Assembly (NCBI RefSeq): GCF_963921235.1 | Contig: NC_086097.1 | Coordinates: 79,114,001 to 79,178,000 of the forward strand | Reading direction: 5' to 3' | Length of the DNA stretch: 64,000 nt | Origin: Mobula hypostoma | Taxonomy: Eukaryota | Part shown: in pieces, positions 1-60,604 of the stretch | Layout: the number at the start of each line of letters is the position of its first letter | How positions within the stretch are numbered: position 1 is the stretch's first letter | The notes under the pieces: generated by a model | Databases searched by the model: none | What the model was told of the DNA's origin: nothing | Seen by the model: only the letters and a program-made list of their open reading frames with translations | Translations under genes and position numbers: made by a program

Positions 1-1144
1 AATTCCTTTCCAACCAAATCTGACATACAAGTTTTAACTGAGTTTCAACACCATGTACAACATCCTGCAGATTTACAGATGCTTCAACAACATGAACACA
101 GGCAATTGGGCCTGCTTCCTCTTCCTCGCTTTCATCACTAGTCCCAGTTTCAAATTCCAATTTACCCTGATCATCCCAGCTACTCTCTTGGAAGCTCTCA
201 TTCAGGATAAATTTAACCTTGTAGGTTAAATCATACTCATCTGCCAGTCTAGCAGACTCCTGCAAAGTAGTAGCATCCTTTTCATCTAGGTACATCCTTA
301 CTTCATCAGGGACACAACTTTTAATTTCTTCAATCAAAATCAACTCCTTTAAGATGTTAATATCCTCATTCGCCCCTTTTGAGGTACACCAACGATTGAA
401 GTACTCATGTTTCTCATAGGCAAACTCCACATATGTTTGGTTCCCAGACTTCCTCAAATCTCTAAACTTTTGTCTGTACGCCTCCGGAACTAACTCGTAA
501 ATCTTAAGCACAGCTTCTTTCATTGTGTTATAATCAGCTGCCTCTTCAAGTGTCAGAGCAGAATACACTTGCTGGGCTTTCCCTTTAATTACACATTGTA
601 ACAAAACAGCCCACTGGTCCCTCGGCCACTGCCGATTCTGGGCCACTTTTTCAAAATGCAGGAAGTACTTATCAACTTCTGCTTCATCAAATGGAGGTAC
701 CAACTTAATTTCTCGACTGACACTAAACCTATCACCAAGGTCTGGCACTTGACCTCTTTGCTGCCATCTCTCCCCCTCGAACTCTGTCTGTTTTTCTGCC
801 TCTCTAGCATCATACTGCCTCTTCCTTTCTGCTTTGTCAACCTCAAGCTGTTTTAGTTGCAACTCATGCTGTCTTCGCCTATCCTCAGCCTCCATCTTGA
901 ATTTTTTTAGCTGAAGCTCAGCCTCAGTAGGTTTACCTTCAGCAAGCATTTCCAACACATCTTCATTAAACTCTCCCTTGGTTATAAAATGCTGTGCTAT
1001 TAACATCTGCATCTGTGCCTTCCTCATTTTAATGTTCGCCTTAAGCTTTAACTTTTGAGCAATTTCCCACAGCACAACCCTCTTAGCATCATCCAATACT
1101 TCAGAGGTTAGTTCTGCCAGAAACCTACAAACCTCAACCTCCAT
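1..1144 (-). CDS. Gypsy (Gmr1-like) gag with SCAN-like capsid region, partial (runs off window edge)
   Basis: ATG at 1144-1142, then 381 codons with no stop to position 1 (absent from the ORF track because it has no stop). Reads MEVEVCRFL...LVPPFDEAEVDKYFLHFEKVAQNRQWPRDQWAVLLQCVIKGKAQQVYSAL...YELVPEAYRQKFRDLRK...LILIEEIKSCVPDEVRMYLDEK...SARLADEY, typical of Gmr1-like/SCAN-related gag. Confidence 0.88.
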   Translation of the reverse strand, partial: MEVEVCRFLAELTSEVLDDAKRVVLWEIAQKLKLKANIKMRKAQMQMLIAQHFITKGEFNEDVLEMLAEGKPTEAELQLKKFKMEAEDRRRQHELQLKQLEVDKAERKRQYDAREAEKQTEFEGERWQQRGQVPDLGDRFSVSREIKLVPPFDEAEVDKYFLHFEKVAQNRQWPRDQWAVLLQCVIKGKAQQVYSALTLEEAADYNTMKEAVLKIYELVPEAYRQKFRDLRKSGNQTYVEFAYEKHEYFNRWCTSKGANEDINILKELILIEEIKSCVPDEVRMYLDEKDATTLQESARLADEYDLTYKVKFILNESFQESSWDDQGKLEFETGTSDESEEEEAGPIACVHVVEASVNLQDVVHGVETQLKLVCQIWLERN

Positions 1145-1260
1145 TGCTGCTGATTTCCCACTCAAGCAAATCAAAAGGGATTTTCCCAAATCAGATCGAC
1201 CATTAATCAATCAATTAAGCCCCCAAACAATTTTAAAATGGCTCCAAACAACTTGTTCAT

Positions 1261-13485: not shown

Positions 13486-14503
13486 CTGGTAGCAGACATT
13501 CTGGTGGTTCTACTATAATGTGGTACTGCAGTTATTTTACAGAAAGTCATATTATAGCAGAACAGACTGTAGTTTCCTTCAAAGCAGATTTAAACAGCAT
13601 TAACTGATCACAATCATGTTATAACCAGTACAGATGTGTAATATAATGAATTAGCCATGATTGAATGGTGGAGCTGATCAATGGGCCAAATGGCATAATT
13701 CTGCTCCTATGTTTTATGGTCTTATGGTTAATTAGTGTTCTCTGATCCATCAGTTGTGTTCTAACCAGTTCATGTTACAGAAAAACACATTATATAGCAA
13801 AGCTACCTGTATATAAAGGTGCAAGTTTAAACAGTGTCTTGTCCAGAGCTTGCAATGAACAGGTATGAGCTGCTTTATTGTCTGAGAATTTCCAAACAGA
13901 TTTGAAGACTAACTGTTCATTAGTGAACATCTTACCTGATGATGGAGGTATTTAGTAAACTGTAAAATGTGAATCTATATGTATGATTATGTTCAGGTTG
14001 CTTTTTAAGTGGTGTCTGGGAAAGCTTCTATTTGGCATGTTGCAACTTGTCAGTGAGGATTTTCCAGTGTTAATTGGGGAAGCTTTGGCTTTGTCATGTT
14101 TAAAATCAGTGCTTGGTCAAAGAGAAATGGGCCATCCAGTTTTATTTTCTGCTTTATTCTCTATTTTACTGTAGTTGCTTGGTATTACTGACTGGGTTGC
14201 TAGATTATTTCAGAGTCAGTCTACCTTGACTTCCTTCTTCTAAAGAATAAGAAAACGAGGTGGTATCTATGCAATAATTTTAAGATTACCATTCCTGTTA
14301 TTTATTATCTGATTTAAATTCCTCAGATCCAATTGAGGGATTTGAACTTGCCTTACCCCGTGGATTGTTAGTACAGTCACTTAATCACTATGTCAGTGGT
14401 ATTCTTGTACCCTGCAGACATGATTGGTCCATCATTACATATTTAATTATGCTTTCAAATACATGACACCCAAGCTGTGGAAATCCTGCATTAAATCACT
14501 CCT

Positions 14504-14916
14504 GCAACATACATCAAAGTTGCTGGTGAACGCAGCAGGCCAAGCAGCATCTATAGGAAGAGGCGCAGTCGACGTTTCAGGCCGAGACCCTTCGTCAGGA
14601 CTAACTGAAGGAAGAGTGAGTAAGGGATTTGAAAGCTGGAGGGGGAGGGGGAGATGCAAAATGATAGGAGAAGACAGGAGGGGGAGGGATAGAGCCGAGA
14701 GCTGGACAAGTGAGAGGCAAAAGGGGATACGAGAGGATCATGGGACAGGAGGCCTAGGGAGAAAGACGGGGGGGGGGTTGACCCAGAGGATGGGCAAGAG
14801 GTATATTTAGAGGGACAGAGGGAGAAAAAGGAGAGTGAGAGAAAGAATGTGTGCATAAAAATGAGTAACAGCTGGGGTACGAGGGGGAGGTGGGGCCTAG
14901 CGGAAGTTAGAGAAGT
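14504..14916 (-). mobile_element. Penelope-like element 3' fragment with 9-bp target-site duplication
   Basis: ATCACTCCT duplicated at 14495-14503 and 14917-14925. Minus strand begins FSNFR-stop (TAG at 14899-14897), followed by a pyrimidine-rich UTR and a hammerhead core. Confidence 0.8.
14566..14603 (-). ncRNA. Minimal type I hammerhead ribozyme (Penelope-associated, stem III reduced to an ACGU palindrome)
   Basis: Minus strand UAGUC-CUGACGA-AGGGUCUCGGCCU-GAAAC-GUC-GACUG: both core boxes intact, stem I UAGUC/GACUG, stem II AGG/CCU, GUC cleavage triplet. Confidence 0.75.
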
Positions 14917-15247
14917 ATCACTCCTTCTTGCTTTCAGGCATTTGTTAAGGTAATTTGTTAGGTCCAAGGATCTGTTGAGTTAGAAATTATGTTACCATTT
15001 GATAATTTTAGGAAAAATATCTGGTAAATGCAGAACCCAGTGAGAGTAATGAAGGTATGATGTTCACCATGCTTCCAATTTCCTCAACAGAGGCAAGCAC
15101 ATGAATGAGCAACTGGTCCCTTATTTTAAATAATTAGGTTCATGATTTTTTAAGGTCCAAGGAAAAGAGTGGACTATCAATATGTTTTATTAAAAGTTGC
15201 CTTTCAGTGGATTAGAGATACTTGATCACAGCCTAAAATCAAATTTA

Positions 15248-16519
15248 CGAAGGGGAAATCATGCTTGACTAATCTTCTGGAATTTTTTGAGAATGTAACT
15301 ATGAAAATGGACATGGGAAAGCCAGTGGATGTAGTGTACCTGGACTTTCAGGAAGGCTTTGATAAGGTCCCATATAGGAGGTTAGTGGGCAAAATTAGAG
15401 CAAATGGTATTGGGGGTAGGGTACTGACATGGATAGAAAATTGTTTGGCAGACAGGAAACAAACAGTAGAGATTAATGGGTCCTTTTCAGAATTGCAGGC
15501 AGTGACTAGTGGGGTACCGCAAAGCTCGGTGCTGGGACCACAGCTATTTACAATATGCATTAATGATTTAGATGAAGGGATTAAAAGTAACATTAGCAAA
15601 TTTGCAGATGACACAAAGCTGGGTGGCAGTGTGAAATGTGAGGAGGATGTTATGAGAACGCAGGGTGACTTGGACAGGTTGGGTGAGTGGGCAGATGCTT
15701 GCCAGATGCAGTTTAATGTGGATAAATGTGAGGTTATCCACTTTGGTGGCAAGAACAGGAAGGCAGATTACTATTTGAATGGTGTCAAGTTAGGAAAAGG
15801 GGAAGTACAACGAGAGCTAGGTGTCCTTGTTCATCAGTCTCCGAAAGTAAGCATGCAGGTACAGCAGGCAGTGAAGAAAGCTAATGGCATGTTGGCCTTC
15901 ATAACAAGGGGAGTTGAGTATAGGAGCAAAGAGGTCCTTCAGCAGTTGTACAGGGTGCCGGTGAGACCACACCTGGAGTATTGTGTACAGTTTTGGTCTC
16001 CAAATTTGAGGAAGGACATTCTAGCTATTGAGGGAGTGCAACGTAGGTTCACGGGGTTAATTCCTGGGATGGCGGGACTGTCATATGTTGAAAGATTGGA
16101 GCGACTGGGGTTGTATACATTGGAATTTAGAAGGATGAGAGGGGATCTGATTGAAACATATAAGATTATTAAGGGATTGGACATGCTAGAGGCAGGAAAC
16201 ATGTTGGGGGAGTCCAGAACCAGAGGCCACAGTTTAAGAATAAGGGGTAGACCATTTAGAACGGAGTTGAGGAAAAACTTTTTCACACGGAGGGTTGTGG
16301 TTCTGTGGAATGCTCTGCCTCAGAAGGTAGTGGAGGCCAATTCTATGGATTCTTTCAAGAAAGAGTTAGATAGAGCTCTTAAAGATAGCAGAGTCAAGGG
16401 ATATGGGGAGAAGGCAGGAAAAGGGTACTGATTGTGGATGATCAGCCATGATTACAGTGAATGGTGGTGCTGGCTCAAAGGCCTGAATGGCCTACTCCTG
16501 TACCTATTGTCTATTGTCT
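15248..16519 (+). mobile_element. CR1 LINE, 5'-truncated, with open 388-aa RT C-terminal ORF (15265-16431)
   Basis: VYLDFQEGFDKVP, SGVPQSSVLGP, KFADDTKL, RPHLEYCVQFWSP; CTATTGT repeat tail. Confidence 0.95.
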
Positions 16520-18997: not shown

Positions 18998-19086
18998 GTG
19001 AAGCCCTTTGTCGGTGAGATCAAAAGCGGGCTGAAGCCATCGATGAAGATGACCATAATGGGGATAGTTCATTCAAAGCCCAACAG
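18998..19086 (+). CDS. LGALSL-like coding exon 2: VKPFVGEIKSGLKPSMKMTIMGIVHSKPN(S)
   Basis: TTTACAG acceptor, 89 nt, GTAT donor, phase 2; aligns with human GRP [29 protein letters not shown]. Confidence 0.9.
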
Positions 19087-20244: not shown

Positions 20245-20410
20245 CACCACAATGCTGCCTAACCTACTGGAGGAACTCAGATCAGGCAGTAACTCTGGTA
20301 AGGAATAAATAGTTGATGTTTTGGGCCAAGACCCTTCATCAGGACGGAAAAGGAAGGGGGAAGACGCAGAATAAGAAGGTGGGGAAAGAGGAGTACAAGC
20401 TAGAAGGAAA
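20245..20410 (-). mobile_element. Penelope-like 3' terminal remnant with decayed hammerhead core
   Basis: Minus strand GTCCTGATGAAGGGTCTTGGCCCAAAACATCAACT, a CpG-decayed version of the 14.5-kb motif. Confidence 0.65.
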
Positions 20411-24604: not shown

Positions 24605-24745
24605 TACCTCAAACACAAGAAAGTCTGCCGATGTTGCCTTGGATTTTCCGCACACACAAAATGCTGGAGGAACTCAGCAGGTCAGGCAGCATCTATGGAC
24701 AGGAATAAACAGCTGACATTTCGGGCCAAGACCCTTCCTTGGGAC
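24605..24745 (-). mobile_element. Penelope-like 3' terminal remnant
   Basis: CACACAAAATGCTGGAGGAACTCAGCAGGTCAGGCAGCATCTATGG then TTTCGGGCCAAGACCCTTC (decayed hammerhead on the minus strand). Confidence 0.65.
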
Positions 24746-25759: not shown

Positions 25760-25934
25760 CTTTGTAATAAGTCTCATCAGCAACCCCTTGGAAACAGAGA
25801 CAGACGTTGGCCTCGAAGTGACAGTCAGCTTTCGGGATCGCACAGTTGTACGAAATGCCAAAGTTTCAGGCAAATGGGGAAAAGAAGAGAAAAATATACC
25901 TTATTTCCCTTTCGCACCTATGCAGCACTTCAAG
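25760..25934 (+). CDS. LGALSL-like coding exon 3: FVISLISNPLETETDVGLEVTVSFRDRTVVRNAKVSGKWGKEEKNIPYFPFAPMQHFK
   Basis: CTGCAG acceptor, 175 nt, GTGAGT donor; IPYFPF motif characteristic of GRP/LGALSL. Confidence 0.93.
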
Positions 25935-29734: not shown

Positions 29735-29878
29735 ATGGAAATCCTGTGTGAGCACCAGCAGTTCCGGGTTCAAGTCGATGGACAACAACTATTTGATTTC
29801 ACATACCGCTTCCAGCAAATACAAAAACTAACTGCATTAAAAATTATAGGTGACCTTCGACTGACGAAAGTAGTTTAA
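29735..29878 (+). CDS. LGALSL-like last coding exon: MEILCEHQQFRVQVDGQQLFDFTYRFQQIQKLTALKIIGDLRLTKVV*
   Basis: TTTCAG acceptor, 144 nt to TAA; close to human GRP [25 protein letters not shown]. The spliced product is 144 aa. Confidence 0.93.
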   Translation: MEILCEHQQFRVQVDGQQLFDFTYRFQQIQKLTALKIIGDLRLTKVV

Positions 29879-37573: not shown

Positions 37574-39204
37574 TAGAAACATAGAAAATAGGTGCAGGAG
37601 TAGGCCATTCAGCCCTTCGTGCCTGCATCACCATTTATTATGATCATGGCTGATCATCCAACTCAGAACCCCGCCCCAGCCTTCCCTCCATACCCCCTGA
37701 CCCCCGTAGCCACAAGGGCCATATCTAACTCCCTCTTAAATATAGCCAATGAACTGGCCTCAACTGTTTCCTGTGGCAGAGAATTCCAGATTCACCACTC
37801 TCTGTGTGAAGAAGTTTTTCCTAATCTCGGTCCTAAAAGGCTTCCCCTCTATCCTCAAACTGTGGCCCCTCGTTCTGGACTTCCCCAACATCGGGAACAT
37901 TCTTCCTGCATCTAGCCTGTCCAATCCCTTTAGGATCTTGTACGTTTCAATCAGATCCCCCTTCAATCTTCTAAATTCCAATGAGTACAAGCCCAGTTCA
38001 TCCAGTCTTTCTTCAGATGAAAGTCCTGCCATCCCAGGAATCAATCTGGTGAACCTTCTTTGTACTCCCTCTATGGCAAGGATGTCTTTCCTCAGATTAG
38101 GGGACCAAAACTGCACACAATACTCCAGGTGTGGTCTCACCAAGGCCTTGTACAACTGCAGTAGTACCTCCCTGCTCCTGTACTCAAATCCTCTCGCTAT
38201 AAATGCCAGCATACCATTCGCCTTTTTCACCGCCTGCTGTACCTGCATGCCCACTTTCAATGACTGGTGTATAATGACACCCAGGTCTCGTTGCACCTCC
38301 CCTTTTCCTAATCGGCCACCATTCAGATAATAATCTGTTTTCCTATTTTTGCCACCAAAGTGGATAACTTCACATTTATCCACATTAAATTGCATCTGCC
38401 ATGAATTTGCCCACTCACCCAACCTATCCAAGTCACCCTGCATCCTCTTAGCATCCTCCTCACAGCTAACACTGCCACCCAGCTTCGTGTCATCCGCAAA
38501 CTTGGAGATGCTGCATTTAATTCCCTCATCCAAGTCATTAATATATATTGTAAACAACTGGGGTCCCAGCACTGAGCCTTGTGGTACCCCACTAGTCACC
38601 GCCTGCCATTCTGAAAAGGTCCCGTTTATTACCACTCTTTGCTTCCTGTCTGCTAACCAATTCTCCACCCACACCAATACCTTACCCCCAATACCGTGTG
38701 CTTTAAGTTTGCACACTAATCTCCTGTGTGGGACCTTGTCAAAAGCCTTTTGAAAATCCAAATATACCACATCCACTGGTTCTCCTCTATCCACTCTACT
38801 AGTTACATCCTCAAAAAATTCTATGAGATTCATCAGACATGATTTTCCTTTCACAAATCCATGCTGACTTTGTCCGATCATTTCACCGCTTTCCAAATGT
38901 GCTGTTATCCCATCCTTGATAACTGACTCCAGCAGTTTCCCCACCACCGACGTTAGGCTAACCGGTCTATAATTCCCCGGTTTCTCTCTCCCTCCTTTTT
39001 TAAAAAGTGGAGTTACATTAGCCACCCTCCAATCCTCAGGAACTAGTCCAGAATCTAACGAGTTTTGAAAAATTATCACTAATGCATCCACTATTTCTTG
39101 GGTTACTTCCTTAAGCACTCTCGGATGCAGACCATCTGGCCCTGGGGATTTACCTGCCTTCAATCCCTTCAATTTACCTAACACCACTTTCCTACTAACA
39201 TGTA
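37574..39204 (-). mobile_element. Young CR1 LINE, 5'-truncated, 475-aa RT ORF (39187-37760)
   Basis: KSPGPDG, NYRPVSLTS, YLDFQKAFDKVPH, SGVPQGSVLGP, FADD; tail TTTCTATGTTTCTA on the minus strand. Confidence 0.96.
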
Positions 39205-39334
39205 CTGGGATCTTGCTCCTTCTTACATCGGTGTTAAGGTTTAGGGTTCTGAATATGGTAGTGTTTGTTAGGGTGCTGGTGTTTTGTTTATTTATGGTGT
39301 TTGGGGGGGTGGATTGTAAGGAGTGAGTGCTCAG

Positions 39335-39890
39335 GTTTGTGGGTGGGTGTGGGGGCCAGAATTTTTGGGAGTATGTAGGGCAGGTTTTGTTGGGGTGTGG
39401 GGGCCAGGGTTTGTGGGGCTGTGGGGGCCAGGGTTTGTGGGGGTGTGTGGAGGTCAGGGTTTGTGGGGGTGTGGGGGCCAGGGTTTGTTAGGGTGTGGGG
39501 GCCAGGGTTTGTGTGGGCCAGGGTTTGTGGGGGTGTGTGGGGGCCAGAGTTTGTGGGGGTGTGTGGGGGCCAGGGTTTGTGGGGGTGTGGGTGAGGGTTT
39601 GTGGGGGTCAGGGTTTGTGGGGATCAGGGTTTGTGGGCGTGTGGGGGCCAGGGTTTGTAGGGGTGTGTGGAGGTCAGGCTTTGTGGGGGTGAGGGTTTGT
39701 GGGGGTGTGGGGATCAGGGTTTGTGGGGGTGTGTGAAGGTCAGGGTTTGTGGGGGTGTGGGGGCCAGGGTATGTGGGGATGAGGGGGCCAGGGTTTGTGG
39801 GGGTGTGGGTGAGGGTGTGTGGGGGTCAGGGTTTGTGGGGGTGTGGGGACCAGGTTTATTAGGGTGTGGGGGCCAGAGTTTGAGGGGGGG
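39335..39890. repeat. G-rich minisatellite, ~24-26-bp unit CAGGGTTTGTGGGGGTGTGGGGGC
   Basis: Roughly 20 or more degenerate tandem copies. Confidence 0.92.
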
Positions 39891-57111: not shown

Positions 57112-58624
57112 AAGACAATGCCCATTGAAGCTAATCTGGCATGTAATGAGTGTAAAGGACTGTTAATAGTAACCAATACAAGTAGAATCATTAATGACCC
57201 TTCTTTATTTCACCTATCCACTGATGATCCTACCAGTTTTTCCACTTTATAATACAAAATCAATTGTGTGTTTTAATAGTAGCAGGATCAGCCATGCTGC
57301 CACTAAGACTAAATATTTAAACAAAATGATAAAGGAAGCAAAGAGAAGATGAGTTATTTATTTCACATGAGGTTACGTTCTCATGTGTGCCATTTGAACT
57401 TGAAATTTGCAGGGTAACGGATAAGGATTAAGGTGTAGAAGTCAGCACAGGCAAGAGAGCCTGAATGGCCTCCTTTATACTCTTTGAAACTATGATCTCC
57501 ACCCCACAAATATAACTGATGTACACATTGGATATTTCCATTCACTGACTTGCCCACCAGATGAAATAATTAACACGAGTTGTACGAATTACAATTTTTC
57601 AACCTCAGCAACAACAAAAAATTCTTTAGAACATGCAAGGGAAAACAAAGCAACAAGAAAAGACGTGACTTTAGAACTGAGAGAAGATAGTGTTTGGAAT
57701 CTAACTGTATTAGTCATGCCTCATCTGACACGACCAAATATTCTAACTCCCCACCAATAGTTACCTTCTCAACAATGCCTGTGGAATAAATAGATTGCAG
57801 CCAACAAATGTTCCTGGATCGAGGATCAATTACATCAATCTGCACCATCAACTTCGATTCCCTTCTCACACAGATGCCCCCTGACCTAATGAGCATCATT
57901 TTTAATTCATGCAGTACATTTACAGCAACTACTGTGTTCTGTGTCCCGCAGTTCAACATTATTTACTTCCACCCAAACTGCATCCCTACCTTTCCTGCCT
58001 GTCCTCATTCATTTCTTTCTACTTGCATTCCCAGCATACTGATCAGATGTAAAGAACAAGCCTTCCCCACCCTCGTATCGCTCACATTCGAGTCAAGTGG
58101 TCTCCACCCAATCACAAATATTCCTGGTTTTCCCTCTATTCATTTCCCTTCTCTGCAACTTAAAACATGTTCAATTTCTATAATTTTCCTTTTTTGAACG
58201 ATATTCATTCTGTTTGCCCCTCCACAATTGTTTCCCTGCTCCCAATTCAAACAGAATCTGTTAGGTGACAACCATTAGTAGCCACAACAGCCAGTTCCGT
58301 AGCCAGTCAGTCAATGAGTTGGATCCCAATTGCAAGGGTGAAGATGGAATGTAATTATGTCACTAAACCTGTGGTTGTTCTGCAGGGACAGTCACTGATA
58401 TAATGGAGCAGGGGCTCAAGGTGTTACTCAAATTGTAAAACACAGTATTCTCTCTGGCTGCTGCCTGCAGTGCCTGATAGACTTGCACCTTATCTGGGGC
58501 AATTCAGGTGGGCTGGCATCCTGAACTATGCAAGGGACACCACAGCAGTAGCAAAACCACTGTGGAAGAGAAAATGAATGCACAAAACCAGAAAAACCAC
58601 TGCTGTGCAGTGCAGGAAACTTAC

Positions 58625-58812
58625 AAAACAATACAGTGCTGTGGAATCATCAAGGAACTGCTCTGTGCTGACGACATTCAATCTGGCCTTTGTGCTTTTA
58701 TCTCCAACTGGTTTGATGAGATCATCTTCGATTAGAAGGGAAGCTATAGTAACGGCATTTGAACGGGAATGGGCTATGTTTCTGGATACCAACCAGTCAA
58801 TCACTGTTGAAC
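58625..58812 (-). CDS. PLEK2: PLEK2 exon (DEP domain): (G)STVIDWLVSRNIAHSRSNAVTIASLLIEDDLIKPVGDKSTKARLNVVSTEQFLDDSTALYCF
   Basis: TGTAG acceptor, 188 nt, GTAAGT donor; EQFLDDSTALY is diagnostic for PLEK2. Confidence 0.95.
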
Positions 58813-60604
58813 CTACAGACAGGAAAAAAAATACGATATGAAATGATTAGTTCCTCTCACTAGAATGAGTCCAGAGACTTGCAAAGAGAACATTGCATTC
58901 AATAAAGAATCAAAGCTGTCCAACTTCATTGATTGAAGAGCGTGAGATTGTTTCCCAAGTAATTTGTAAAACCAGATTGGTAGAAAAACTGCACCTCCAA
59001 AGTAAATAACGTTTAGGAAAGGTCCCTGTATGAACAAGGTGAAAAACCAATGAGAAACCTCTCCCTGCTCCTTCACCTCCAACAAATGTTTGAGGCTTCC
59101 CTCAATGTTTGCAAGAAAGTTCTATCCAAATGTTTACAGATGCCGTCTACTCTCATTCCCTCCACTGCTTTAATCAAAATGATTATTATTGTGATCAAAG
59201 TGTAGAAAATATATTAAAAGCTAAATTAATATGCATCTTCTTATTCCATGATAGGGACATGGTTTGATCCTGACCTCAGATATTATGGGTTAACATTCAC
59301 ACATTCTCTCCTGCACCATCCGAGCTCCCCTCAGATGCTTGGTTTCCTGACATATTTCAGAACACATGTTGTTGGGTTAATCAGCTTCTTTAAATTAACC
59401 ATTGACCTACTGTAATGGGTAAAGAAAGGAATCGAGTGGGAATTGATGGGCATGTGCAAGAGGGAACATGTTGCAGCAATACTGGGAAATGAGGCGTGGG
59501 AAGGGAATGGAACTGATAACTTTCCTAGAAGTTGGCATGGACACAAAGAGCCAAATAATTATAGAAATAAGAAAAACTATAACACAACTAAGTTTTAATA
59601 ACAAATTCCTGCAAAATGCCTAAAATTCAGATCTTACATTTAAGCAAAATAACATTAATTTGAATTGGAAAATTACCAAAACAGTTTTATGCTCCTGTTC
59701 TTTCTTGTAGTGTTACCTTACTAAATCCTTATTTACATGGATTGGAGTATTGCGTCACTGGAGTGAACCAGGATGCAGATGTTTGTGGAAATCTGTCAGA
59801 CTCCAGCTGCATGCTGAACTTTTGTCTGGGCAAGTCTAGTGCTGGTCTTTTCAAGCATTTGTTCTCTCCCCACCCCCAAAAAAAGAAGTTCTCAGAACTG
59901 GCAGGGAGCAGTGAATCTAGACCAAATGCCTGGCAGCACTGCAGAGACAACAGGAGAAATTCAAAGCTGGCTGCTAGTTGAAGGACATGCAGACATTAAC
60001 AGTCATTCACTAGTGAAGATCATGCTAAGTGACTGGGTGTAAGGATTCTGAACCCACGCAGGTGAAAGAGAAAGAAGGTCCACCAAGAGGGACCCTGTCA
60101 ATCTTGTTCCAAGTTGCAATTAAATCATACCCCCTCCTCCAACATTTAGTAAGAGCTTTCCACCAACAATGAAATCCAGTTCTACATCCTGCCCTCCCAC
60201 TTACAATCACACTCACTTATCTGAGCAGTTTCTTGATTGGCTTTGTTTTGTTTTATCCCCAAAAAGCCATTCATTCAATCCCTCTTTATTCTGGTTTCTG
60301 GACTGCAATACCTAGTTAAGCCTTTAAACACCAAAATCAACTGAACTGCAAGAACTTGCTCATTTGTGTCATTTTTAAAATACAAATCGAATAGATGAAG
60401 CTAGGAAAATTACCATAAAGATTATCAATGGTAAAAATTTACATTTCAGTCTTTGATCATTCTGTTTCCTTCCAAGAATGGGGGTCACAGGAAAATATGT
60501 GGGCCAGTGGGATTGTTCTGAATGCTGGAATAGATTCTATGGCCTCCCTCTCTCTTTAAAGAAATATTAAAAATGTCGGATGGCTCATTTTGTGAAACCA
60601 TAGG

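Follow-up and report, generated by a model that had tools for sequence, protein, structure and literature searches.

A minimal type I hammerhead motif in a young copy of a very abundant, likely Penelope-like repeat

On its minus strand, the window (the whole 64-kb stretch of DNA that was analysed) carries a complete minimal type I hammerhead at 14566-14603. By every sequence feature that could be tested, this motif is a minimal hammerhead ribozyme (min-HHR) of the kind described in 2014, that is, a new example of a known motif class in a locus that is itself an ordinary copy. The motif lies within a 413-bp insertion which, together with its 9-bp target-site duplication (TSD), is proven by the empty site that two relatives have; it belongs to a very abundant repeat. 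The carrier is likely a Penelope-like element (PLE). We consider it very probable that any role of the motif is confined to tandem transcripts of source elements and needs the help of protein, and that the lone copy described here is inert.

Results

The minus strand, read directly, gives the parts listed in Table 1. As the original prediction had claimed, both catalytic boxes, a 5-bp stem I, a short stem II and a GUC triplet are present, stem III is collapsed to the palindrome ACGU at 14575-14572, and the cut, predicted to fall between 14571 and 14570, is rightly placed in hammerhead numbering. Stem I consists of four Watson-Crick pairs and a terminal U.G, and stem II of the pairs G.U, G-C, G-C and U.G, with two G.U among its 4 bp. 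The core had also been called intact. This holds in that all core letters are there, but the pair closing stem II (10.1-11.1) is the minority form G.U, a wobble by a CpG-type change, and the strict G-C form is absent from the insertion copy; the term therefore describes the sequence and not an activity.

Table 1 Features of the hammerhead-bearing insertion and of the neighbouring galectin-related gene (window coordinates)
Feature	Position	Strand	Basis
Stem I, 5' strand	14603-14599	-	Sequence reading and folding
Catalytic box C3-U4-G5-A6-C7-G8-A9	14598-14592	-	Sequence and descriptor
Extra A after A9	14591	-	CUGANGA box plus one extra nucleotide before 10.1
Stem II, 4 bp	14590-14587 paired with 14582-14579	-	CUCG loop, 4 nt
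G12-A13-A14-A15.1 (GAAA box)	14578-14575	-	Sequence and descriptor
C15.2-G16.2-U16.1-C17	14574-14571	-	Sequence
Loop-less palindromic stem III, ACGU	14575-14572	-	Descriptor
GUC triplet	14573-14571	-	NUH criterion satisfied
Stem I, 3' strand	14570-14566	-	Sequence reading and folding
Predicted cut	3' of 14571, between 14571 and 14570	-	Position in hammerhead numbering
TSD, left copy, 9 bp, ATCACTCCT	14495-14503		Exact repeat; empty-site joint
TSD, right copy, 9 bp, ATCACTCCT	14917-14925		Exact repeat; empty-site joint
413-bp 5'-truncated repeat copy, read as PLE 3' end (pLTR region)	14504-14916	-	Depth rise
Last codons and stop of presumed ORF (FSNFR, stop)	14897-14916	-	Frame reading; upstream family frame in phase
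Galectin-related exon	about 18998-19086	+	Pfam PF00337 positions 1-30, weak, E 0.14
Galectin-related exon	about 25760-25934	+	PF00337 positions 28-85
Galectin-related exon	about 29735-29875	+	PF00337 positions 84-130; best match galectin-related protein

A relaxed min-HHR descriptor found this one site on both strands of the 64-kb window, and hence no second intact motif there. Dinucleotide shuffles yielded any site in 4 of 600 cases and a palindromic one in 1 of 600; as the descriptor was composed after the motif was seen, these figures are somewhat favourable. Rfam 15 returned no hammerhead family at E ≤ 1 over the 64 kb, nor at E ≤ 10 over 501 bases, which is expected for a motif without stem III, and the fold energy of the 38-mer was not above that of shuffles (z = -1.24). 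The late composition of the descriptor, the missing Rfam match and the ordinary fold energy are what one would see if the likeness to a hammerhead had arisen by chance. This explanation is nevertheless largely refuted, and we leave it next to no probability, given the rarity of the site in shuffles, the fit of the extra nucleotide after A9 and of the ACGU palindrome to the published consensus, and a location at the 3' end of a retro-insertion, the known place of min-HHRs.

The history of the insertion was read from four (X2, X5, X13 and X11) of 24 listed sequencing runs, all of them aligned as contigs, which cannot show the ends of RNAs or molecules. Both of the other organisms aligned (B, run X5, and D, run X13) have the empty site: in each, one contig joins 14494 to 14917, skipping 422 bases, and 9 letters fit either side of the joint. 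The perfect 9-bp TSD and the 413-bp length that had been predicted are thus borne out by an exact repeat and by the empty site. Compared with the window, the flanks carry another letter at 7 of 623 positions (1.1%) in B and at 29 of 628 (4.6%) in D, and an empty site in relatives this close indicates that the copy is young, again as predicted. It also implies that the insertion took place after the split from B, or that it was an unsorted polymorphism. Contigs of X2 cross both insertion junctions without a difference, and no empty-site joint is among the joints listed for that run; X2 may, however, be the window's own source and thus not independent, contigs drop rare variants, and a number of joints are missing from the count.

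The insertion has no poly(A) tail and holds 11 CpGs, in agreement with the predicted CpG retention (observed/expected 0.51; the window as a whole has 0.26 and the 1 kb to the left 0.06). It is not a brand-new copy, about 1% of its letters being private changes: among the places listed for X2, 86-100% of the depth carries another letter at 14709, 14714, 14778 and 14872, and the majority letter differs from the insertion copy at 12 of the 20 tabulated places (among the variant rows listed). The left flank contains a short low-copy repeat of its own at about 14294-14365, with a depth of ~7x the single-copy level in X2, X5 and X13.

The abundance of the repeat is evident from the 90,848 (X2), 82,083 (X5), 14,265 (X13) and 6,796 (X11) contigs that aligned to the stretch, nearly all of those from X2 on the insertion. 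Over the insertion only, depth reached 10^5-10^6 times the single-copy level, with insertion-to-flank ratios of ~1,000,000 (X2), 390,000 (X5) and 277,000 (X13), which are not to be equated with copy numbers. Contigs of the family are short over the repeat and continue past both insertion ends. Run X11, which is RNA only by guess, covers the repeat and hardly the flanks, and says nothing on expression of the locus.

Within the family, relatives differ in the letters they favour. Another letter than that of the insertion copy accounts for 43% (organism A, run X2), 97% (B) and 98% (D) of the depth at 14697, and for 22% (A), 68% (B) and 98% (D) at 14637. Letters of the insertion copy are thus common in A and rarer in B or D, as would be expected had one subfamily expanded in A, although any alignment to the insertion copy is biased towards the subfamily of that copy. 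Together with the empty site in B and D, this pattern upholds the prediction of a recently active family. Position 11.1 of the hammerhead (14579) is C in 21% (X2), 31% (X5), 20% (X11) and 76% (X13) of the depth, so that U predominates in organisms A and B, and C in organism D. Decay of the insertion copy, considered as the origin of U11.1, was rejected because of this predominance of U in A and B. Among the variant rows listed, this exchange of G-C for G.U at 14579 is the form that stem variation takes, one-sided only and with no two-sided compensatory change, and the catalytic boxes show no variant.

Loose contig ends pile up at 14566 and 14602 in all four runs, and their letters resemble those of motif relics at 20.3 and 24.7 kb of the window. 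This points to a sister family that shares the module from stem I to stem I and not its immediate flanks, and that two families hold the module in common while their flanks differ suggests that the motif is under selection. Both relics are decayed hammerheads of the sister family on the minus strand. The one at 20311-20345 has G12, G16.2 and G1.1 changed to A (CpG-type), and the one at 24710-24745 lacks U4 and G5. G10.1-C11.1 is retained in each of them, and both sit, antisense to the galectin-related gene, in the intron between the first two of its exons found. As a separate observation, two of the 6 X5 joints listed land on 14571, which is C17 and the predicted cut site, and one of the two may be an alignment artefact of CpG decay.

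In the isolated 38-mer the core would be trapped in a 4-bp helix of G5-A6-C7-G8 with C15.2-G16.2-U16.1-C17 (probability 0.98-0.99), and within the whole insert stems I and II have probabilities near 0. Nearest-neighbour folding placed the active dimer at -11.5 kcal/mol as against -30.3 kcal/mol for the best dimer, which counts against the reading that we favour. Since such energies ignore tertiary contacts and lack a positive control, they are weak evidence; taken as a model, the folds agree with an off state of the motif. An upstream hairpin (14617-14587) hiding the CUGA box was also considered as a designed off-switch and rejected, as stem I was suppressed just as strongly in 211 of 1000 cases when the upstream 37 nt were shuffled.

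The core-trapping helix bears on the idea that the motif is catalytically dead even in its source elements, the G.U at 10.1-11.1 and the helix having switched it off, and that the family spread without cleavage. Such a history would suit the U majority in organisms A and B, as well as the excerpted results on a Penelope-like element of an anole, in which catalytic mutants had no effect on insertion in vitro and RNA-seq reads did not end at the cut site (PMC11167929). It is harder to reconcile with the sharing of the module by two families of different flanks, with catalytic boxes devoid of variants among the variant rows listed, and with the published representatives, 8 of 56 of which have G.U at 10.1-11.1 and 4 of 56 of which combine CUGACGA with CGUC in the alignment available from PMC4209133. 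We regard a dead motif as unlikely, although it deserves serious weight, and favour one that may act in the source elements.

The assignment of the carrier to PLEs draws on its architecture and on a short coding stub. The insertion retains only about six codons of an ORF, with the stop at 14899-14897. Past 14916 the family continues in an open frame reading LQPDGMNI, in phase with the FSNFR and stop of the copy, so the frame in which the copy starts is carried on upstream by the family, and the copy is 5'-truncated within the end of the ORF. This frame end is a putative C-terminus of a Penelope GIY-YIG domain; EN+ PLEs encode a telomerase-like RT with a GIY-YIG endonuclease, and their full copies are built as pLTR-ORF-pLTR, in tandem or partial tandem. 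C3 of the hammerhead lies about 300 nt downstream of the stop, in keeping with PLE hammerheads, which sit in the terminal repeat after the ORF, and beyond 14504 part of the family runs a little further, which may represent an optional PLE tail. The copy thereby combines 5' truncation, a short TSD and the lack of poly(A), all of them PLE traits. In the accessible parts of the literature, PLEs are described with TSDs of 8-10 bp (PMC3846280), with 5' truncation and solo pLTRs (PMC3846280, PMC8557442) and with an optional 3' tail (PMC8557442).

Searches for the remainder of such an element were negative within their scope. A Pfam scan of 300 of the 322 stop-to-stop frames of at least 55 aa in the window gave no GIY-YIG family, and none of 743 homologue candidates passed for the frame overlapping the insert, in a weak test that considered longer proteins only. 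The upstream coding stub had no match in the window. Pattern scans for relatives returned no loci in metagenome contigs or in prokaryote genomes; in viral contigs the core pattern gave none and a shorter downstream pattern gave 9, presumably by chance. The literature search brought up no paper on the C-terminal endonuclease motif. Because no reverse transcriptase (RT) or GIY-YIG sequence of the family was recovered, PLE membership is likely but not proven. The predicted Penelope fragment thus stands as far as architecture and coding stub carry it, and the RT/GIY-YIG ORF that was not recovered counts against our main reading.

The lack of a recovered ORF would also be expected if the insertion were not the truncation of an autonomous element but a monomer from a non-autonomous derivative, of the non-LTR retrozyme or SINE-like type, that uses Penelope machinery. 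Its 413 bp are near the 363 bp given, in the portion of that report available, as the mean retrozyme consensus of one chondrichthyan (10.64898/2026.07.22.740005), the repeat is present in enormous numbers, and its depth peaks near the ribozyme. A depth falling towards the 5' end is, however, also produced by 5' truncation, the copy starts inside a frame that the family extends upstream, and it forms a single unit with a TSD and not a tandem array. We therefore hold a retrozyme monomer to be improbable and retain a truncated PLE as the likely carrier.

With respect to genes, the first galectin-related exon found (Table 1) follows the insertion at a distance of about 4 kb. The insertion is located either within one of the early introns or ahead of the gene, and the ribozyme strand is antisense to the gene in either placement. 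This neighbourhood, along with core letters that are all intact, could be taken as signs of a functional ribozyme that matters to the host by cleaving RNA transcribed from the locus. Its antisense orientation, its lineage-specific presence (it is absent in B and D), the lack of an intact partner in the window and the reported absence of cleavage by monomeric min-HHRs, in the portion of PMC4209133 that is accessible, make this very improbable.

A further reading, which we find quite improbable, extends from the locus to the family: given copies on the order of 10^5, lone motifs in different transcripts would pair in trans via ACGU and cut host pre-mRNAs, and selection would deplete intact sense intronic cores and favour a weakened subfamily. 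Were it true, the G.U form (majority in A and B, minority in D) would be an attenuated variant. The three motif copies of the window all lie antisense to the galectin-related gene; this agrees with such trans-cleavage, but three copies are far too few to count.

The window contains several other elements. Two long RT frames, at 15226-16431 (+) and 37760-39487 (-), are 80% alike over about 1.3 kb and belong to a non-LTR element, presumably CR1-like, and further RT fragments occur at 10.7-11.4 kb and 36.4-36.9 kb. A 403-aa open frame at 2-1210 (-), running to the window edge, has a SCAN domain (Pfam PF02023, E 4.8e-11), and a DEP-domain exon at 58529-58846 (-; Pfam PF00610, E 1.2e-10) marks a minus-strand gene.

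Discussion

A lone min-HHR cannot close stem III, and two copies can, by pairing of their palindromes. We propose that target-primed reverse transcription at a staggered nick gave rise to the insertion, a 5'-truncated copy of the 3' end of a Penelope-like retroelement, with duplication of the 9 bp, and that this happened after the lineage split from the close relative B or left an unsorted polymorphism. The insertion would have brought with it the minimal type I hammerhead of the element. Where a source element is transcribed as a tandem, the ACGU palindromes of two such motifs would pair with each other and so form the missing stem III. The motifs would swap stem I strands, and cleavage after GUC by the resulting double hammerhead would probably be slow and aided by an element protein. 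With one motif, no ORF and no intact partner at the locus, the copy at 14566-14603 is most likely a passive relic. Its inertness is further supported by the loss of core letters in the two other relics of the window and by the position of the motif on the strand opposite the galectin-related exons.

In published assays, as far as the available excerpts go, min-HHRs showed no cleavage as monomers and low cleavage as dimers or trimers (PMC4209133), and a review likewise describes dimer cleavage, citing Lunse et al. (PMC6765202). The anole element needed protein for cleavage (PMC11167929).

By itself, a single copy matters little, as one relic within a motif class already known; it is of use as a well-dated example, bounded by the empty site in two relatives. 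The family to which it belongs shows subfamily turnover between relatives at a conserved ribozyme pair (G-C versus G.U). The family is so large and the species are so close that they could be used to test whether Penelope-like spread needs the ribozyme, a question left open by work in vitro; presence/absence dating among close relatives would make the in vivo role of hammerhead cleavage in Penelope transposition testable at scale.

The closest known systems are the min-HHRs in pLTRs of metazoan PLEs (Cervera and De la Pena 2014, PMC4209133; counts in its 56-row alignment, as far as that is available, were made by hand). The motif shares with them the type I topology, the CUGANGA box with one extra nucleotide, GAAA, an NUH triplet, a loop-less palindromic stem III, a short stem I and an occurrence mostly as single dispersed copies in truncated elements, and the ACGU arrangement of 14575-14572 is found in 29 of the 56 published representatives. 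It differs in its 4-bp stem II with two G.U pairs: G10.1-C11.1 is called highly conserved in that work, and G.U is found there in 8 of the 56 rows. None of the 56 is from a cartilaginous fish, and 4 of the 56 have the combination of CUGACGA and CGUC seen here. In abundance, the family appears to be far above the 4,000-9,000 copies given for coelacanth and Xenopus, although the depth ratios given above do not translate into copy numbers. A literature search that reached few subscription journals found no paper dedicated to PLE hammerheads in cartilaginous fishes.

Non-LTR retrozymes, which the accessible part of Li, Clavereau and Pollet (2026; 10.64898/2026.07.22.740005) reports from one chondrichthyan along with PLEs, are alike in their type I hammerhead, their relation to pLTRs and their similar length. 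They are defined, however, as tandem arrays of two or more units in which every unit has a complete hammerhead, whereas the insertion described here is a single TSD-flanked unit.

PAc (Poseidon) of Anolis carolinensis (Frangieh et al. 2024, PMC11167929) is, in the excerpts available, a PLE of a vertebrate that likewise has its hammerhead in the pLTR and may bear a 3' tail. PAc is full length and has been assayed, whereas the present insertion has no ORF. PAc nevertheless provides the likely mode of action for the source elements of this family, namely protein-assisted cleavage that is not needed for insertion in vitro.
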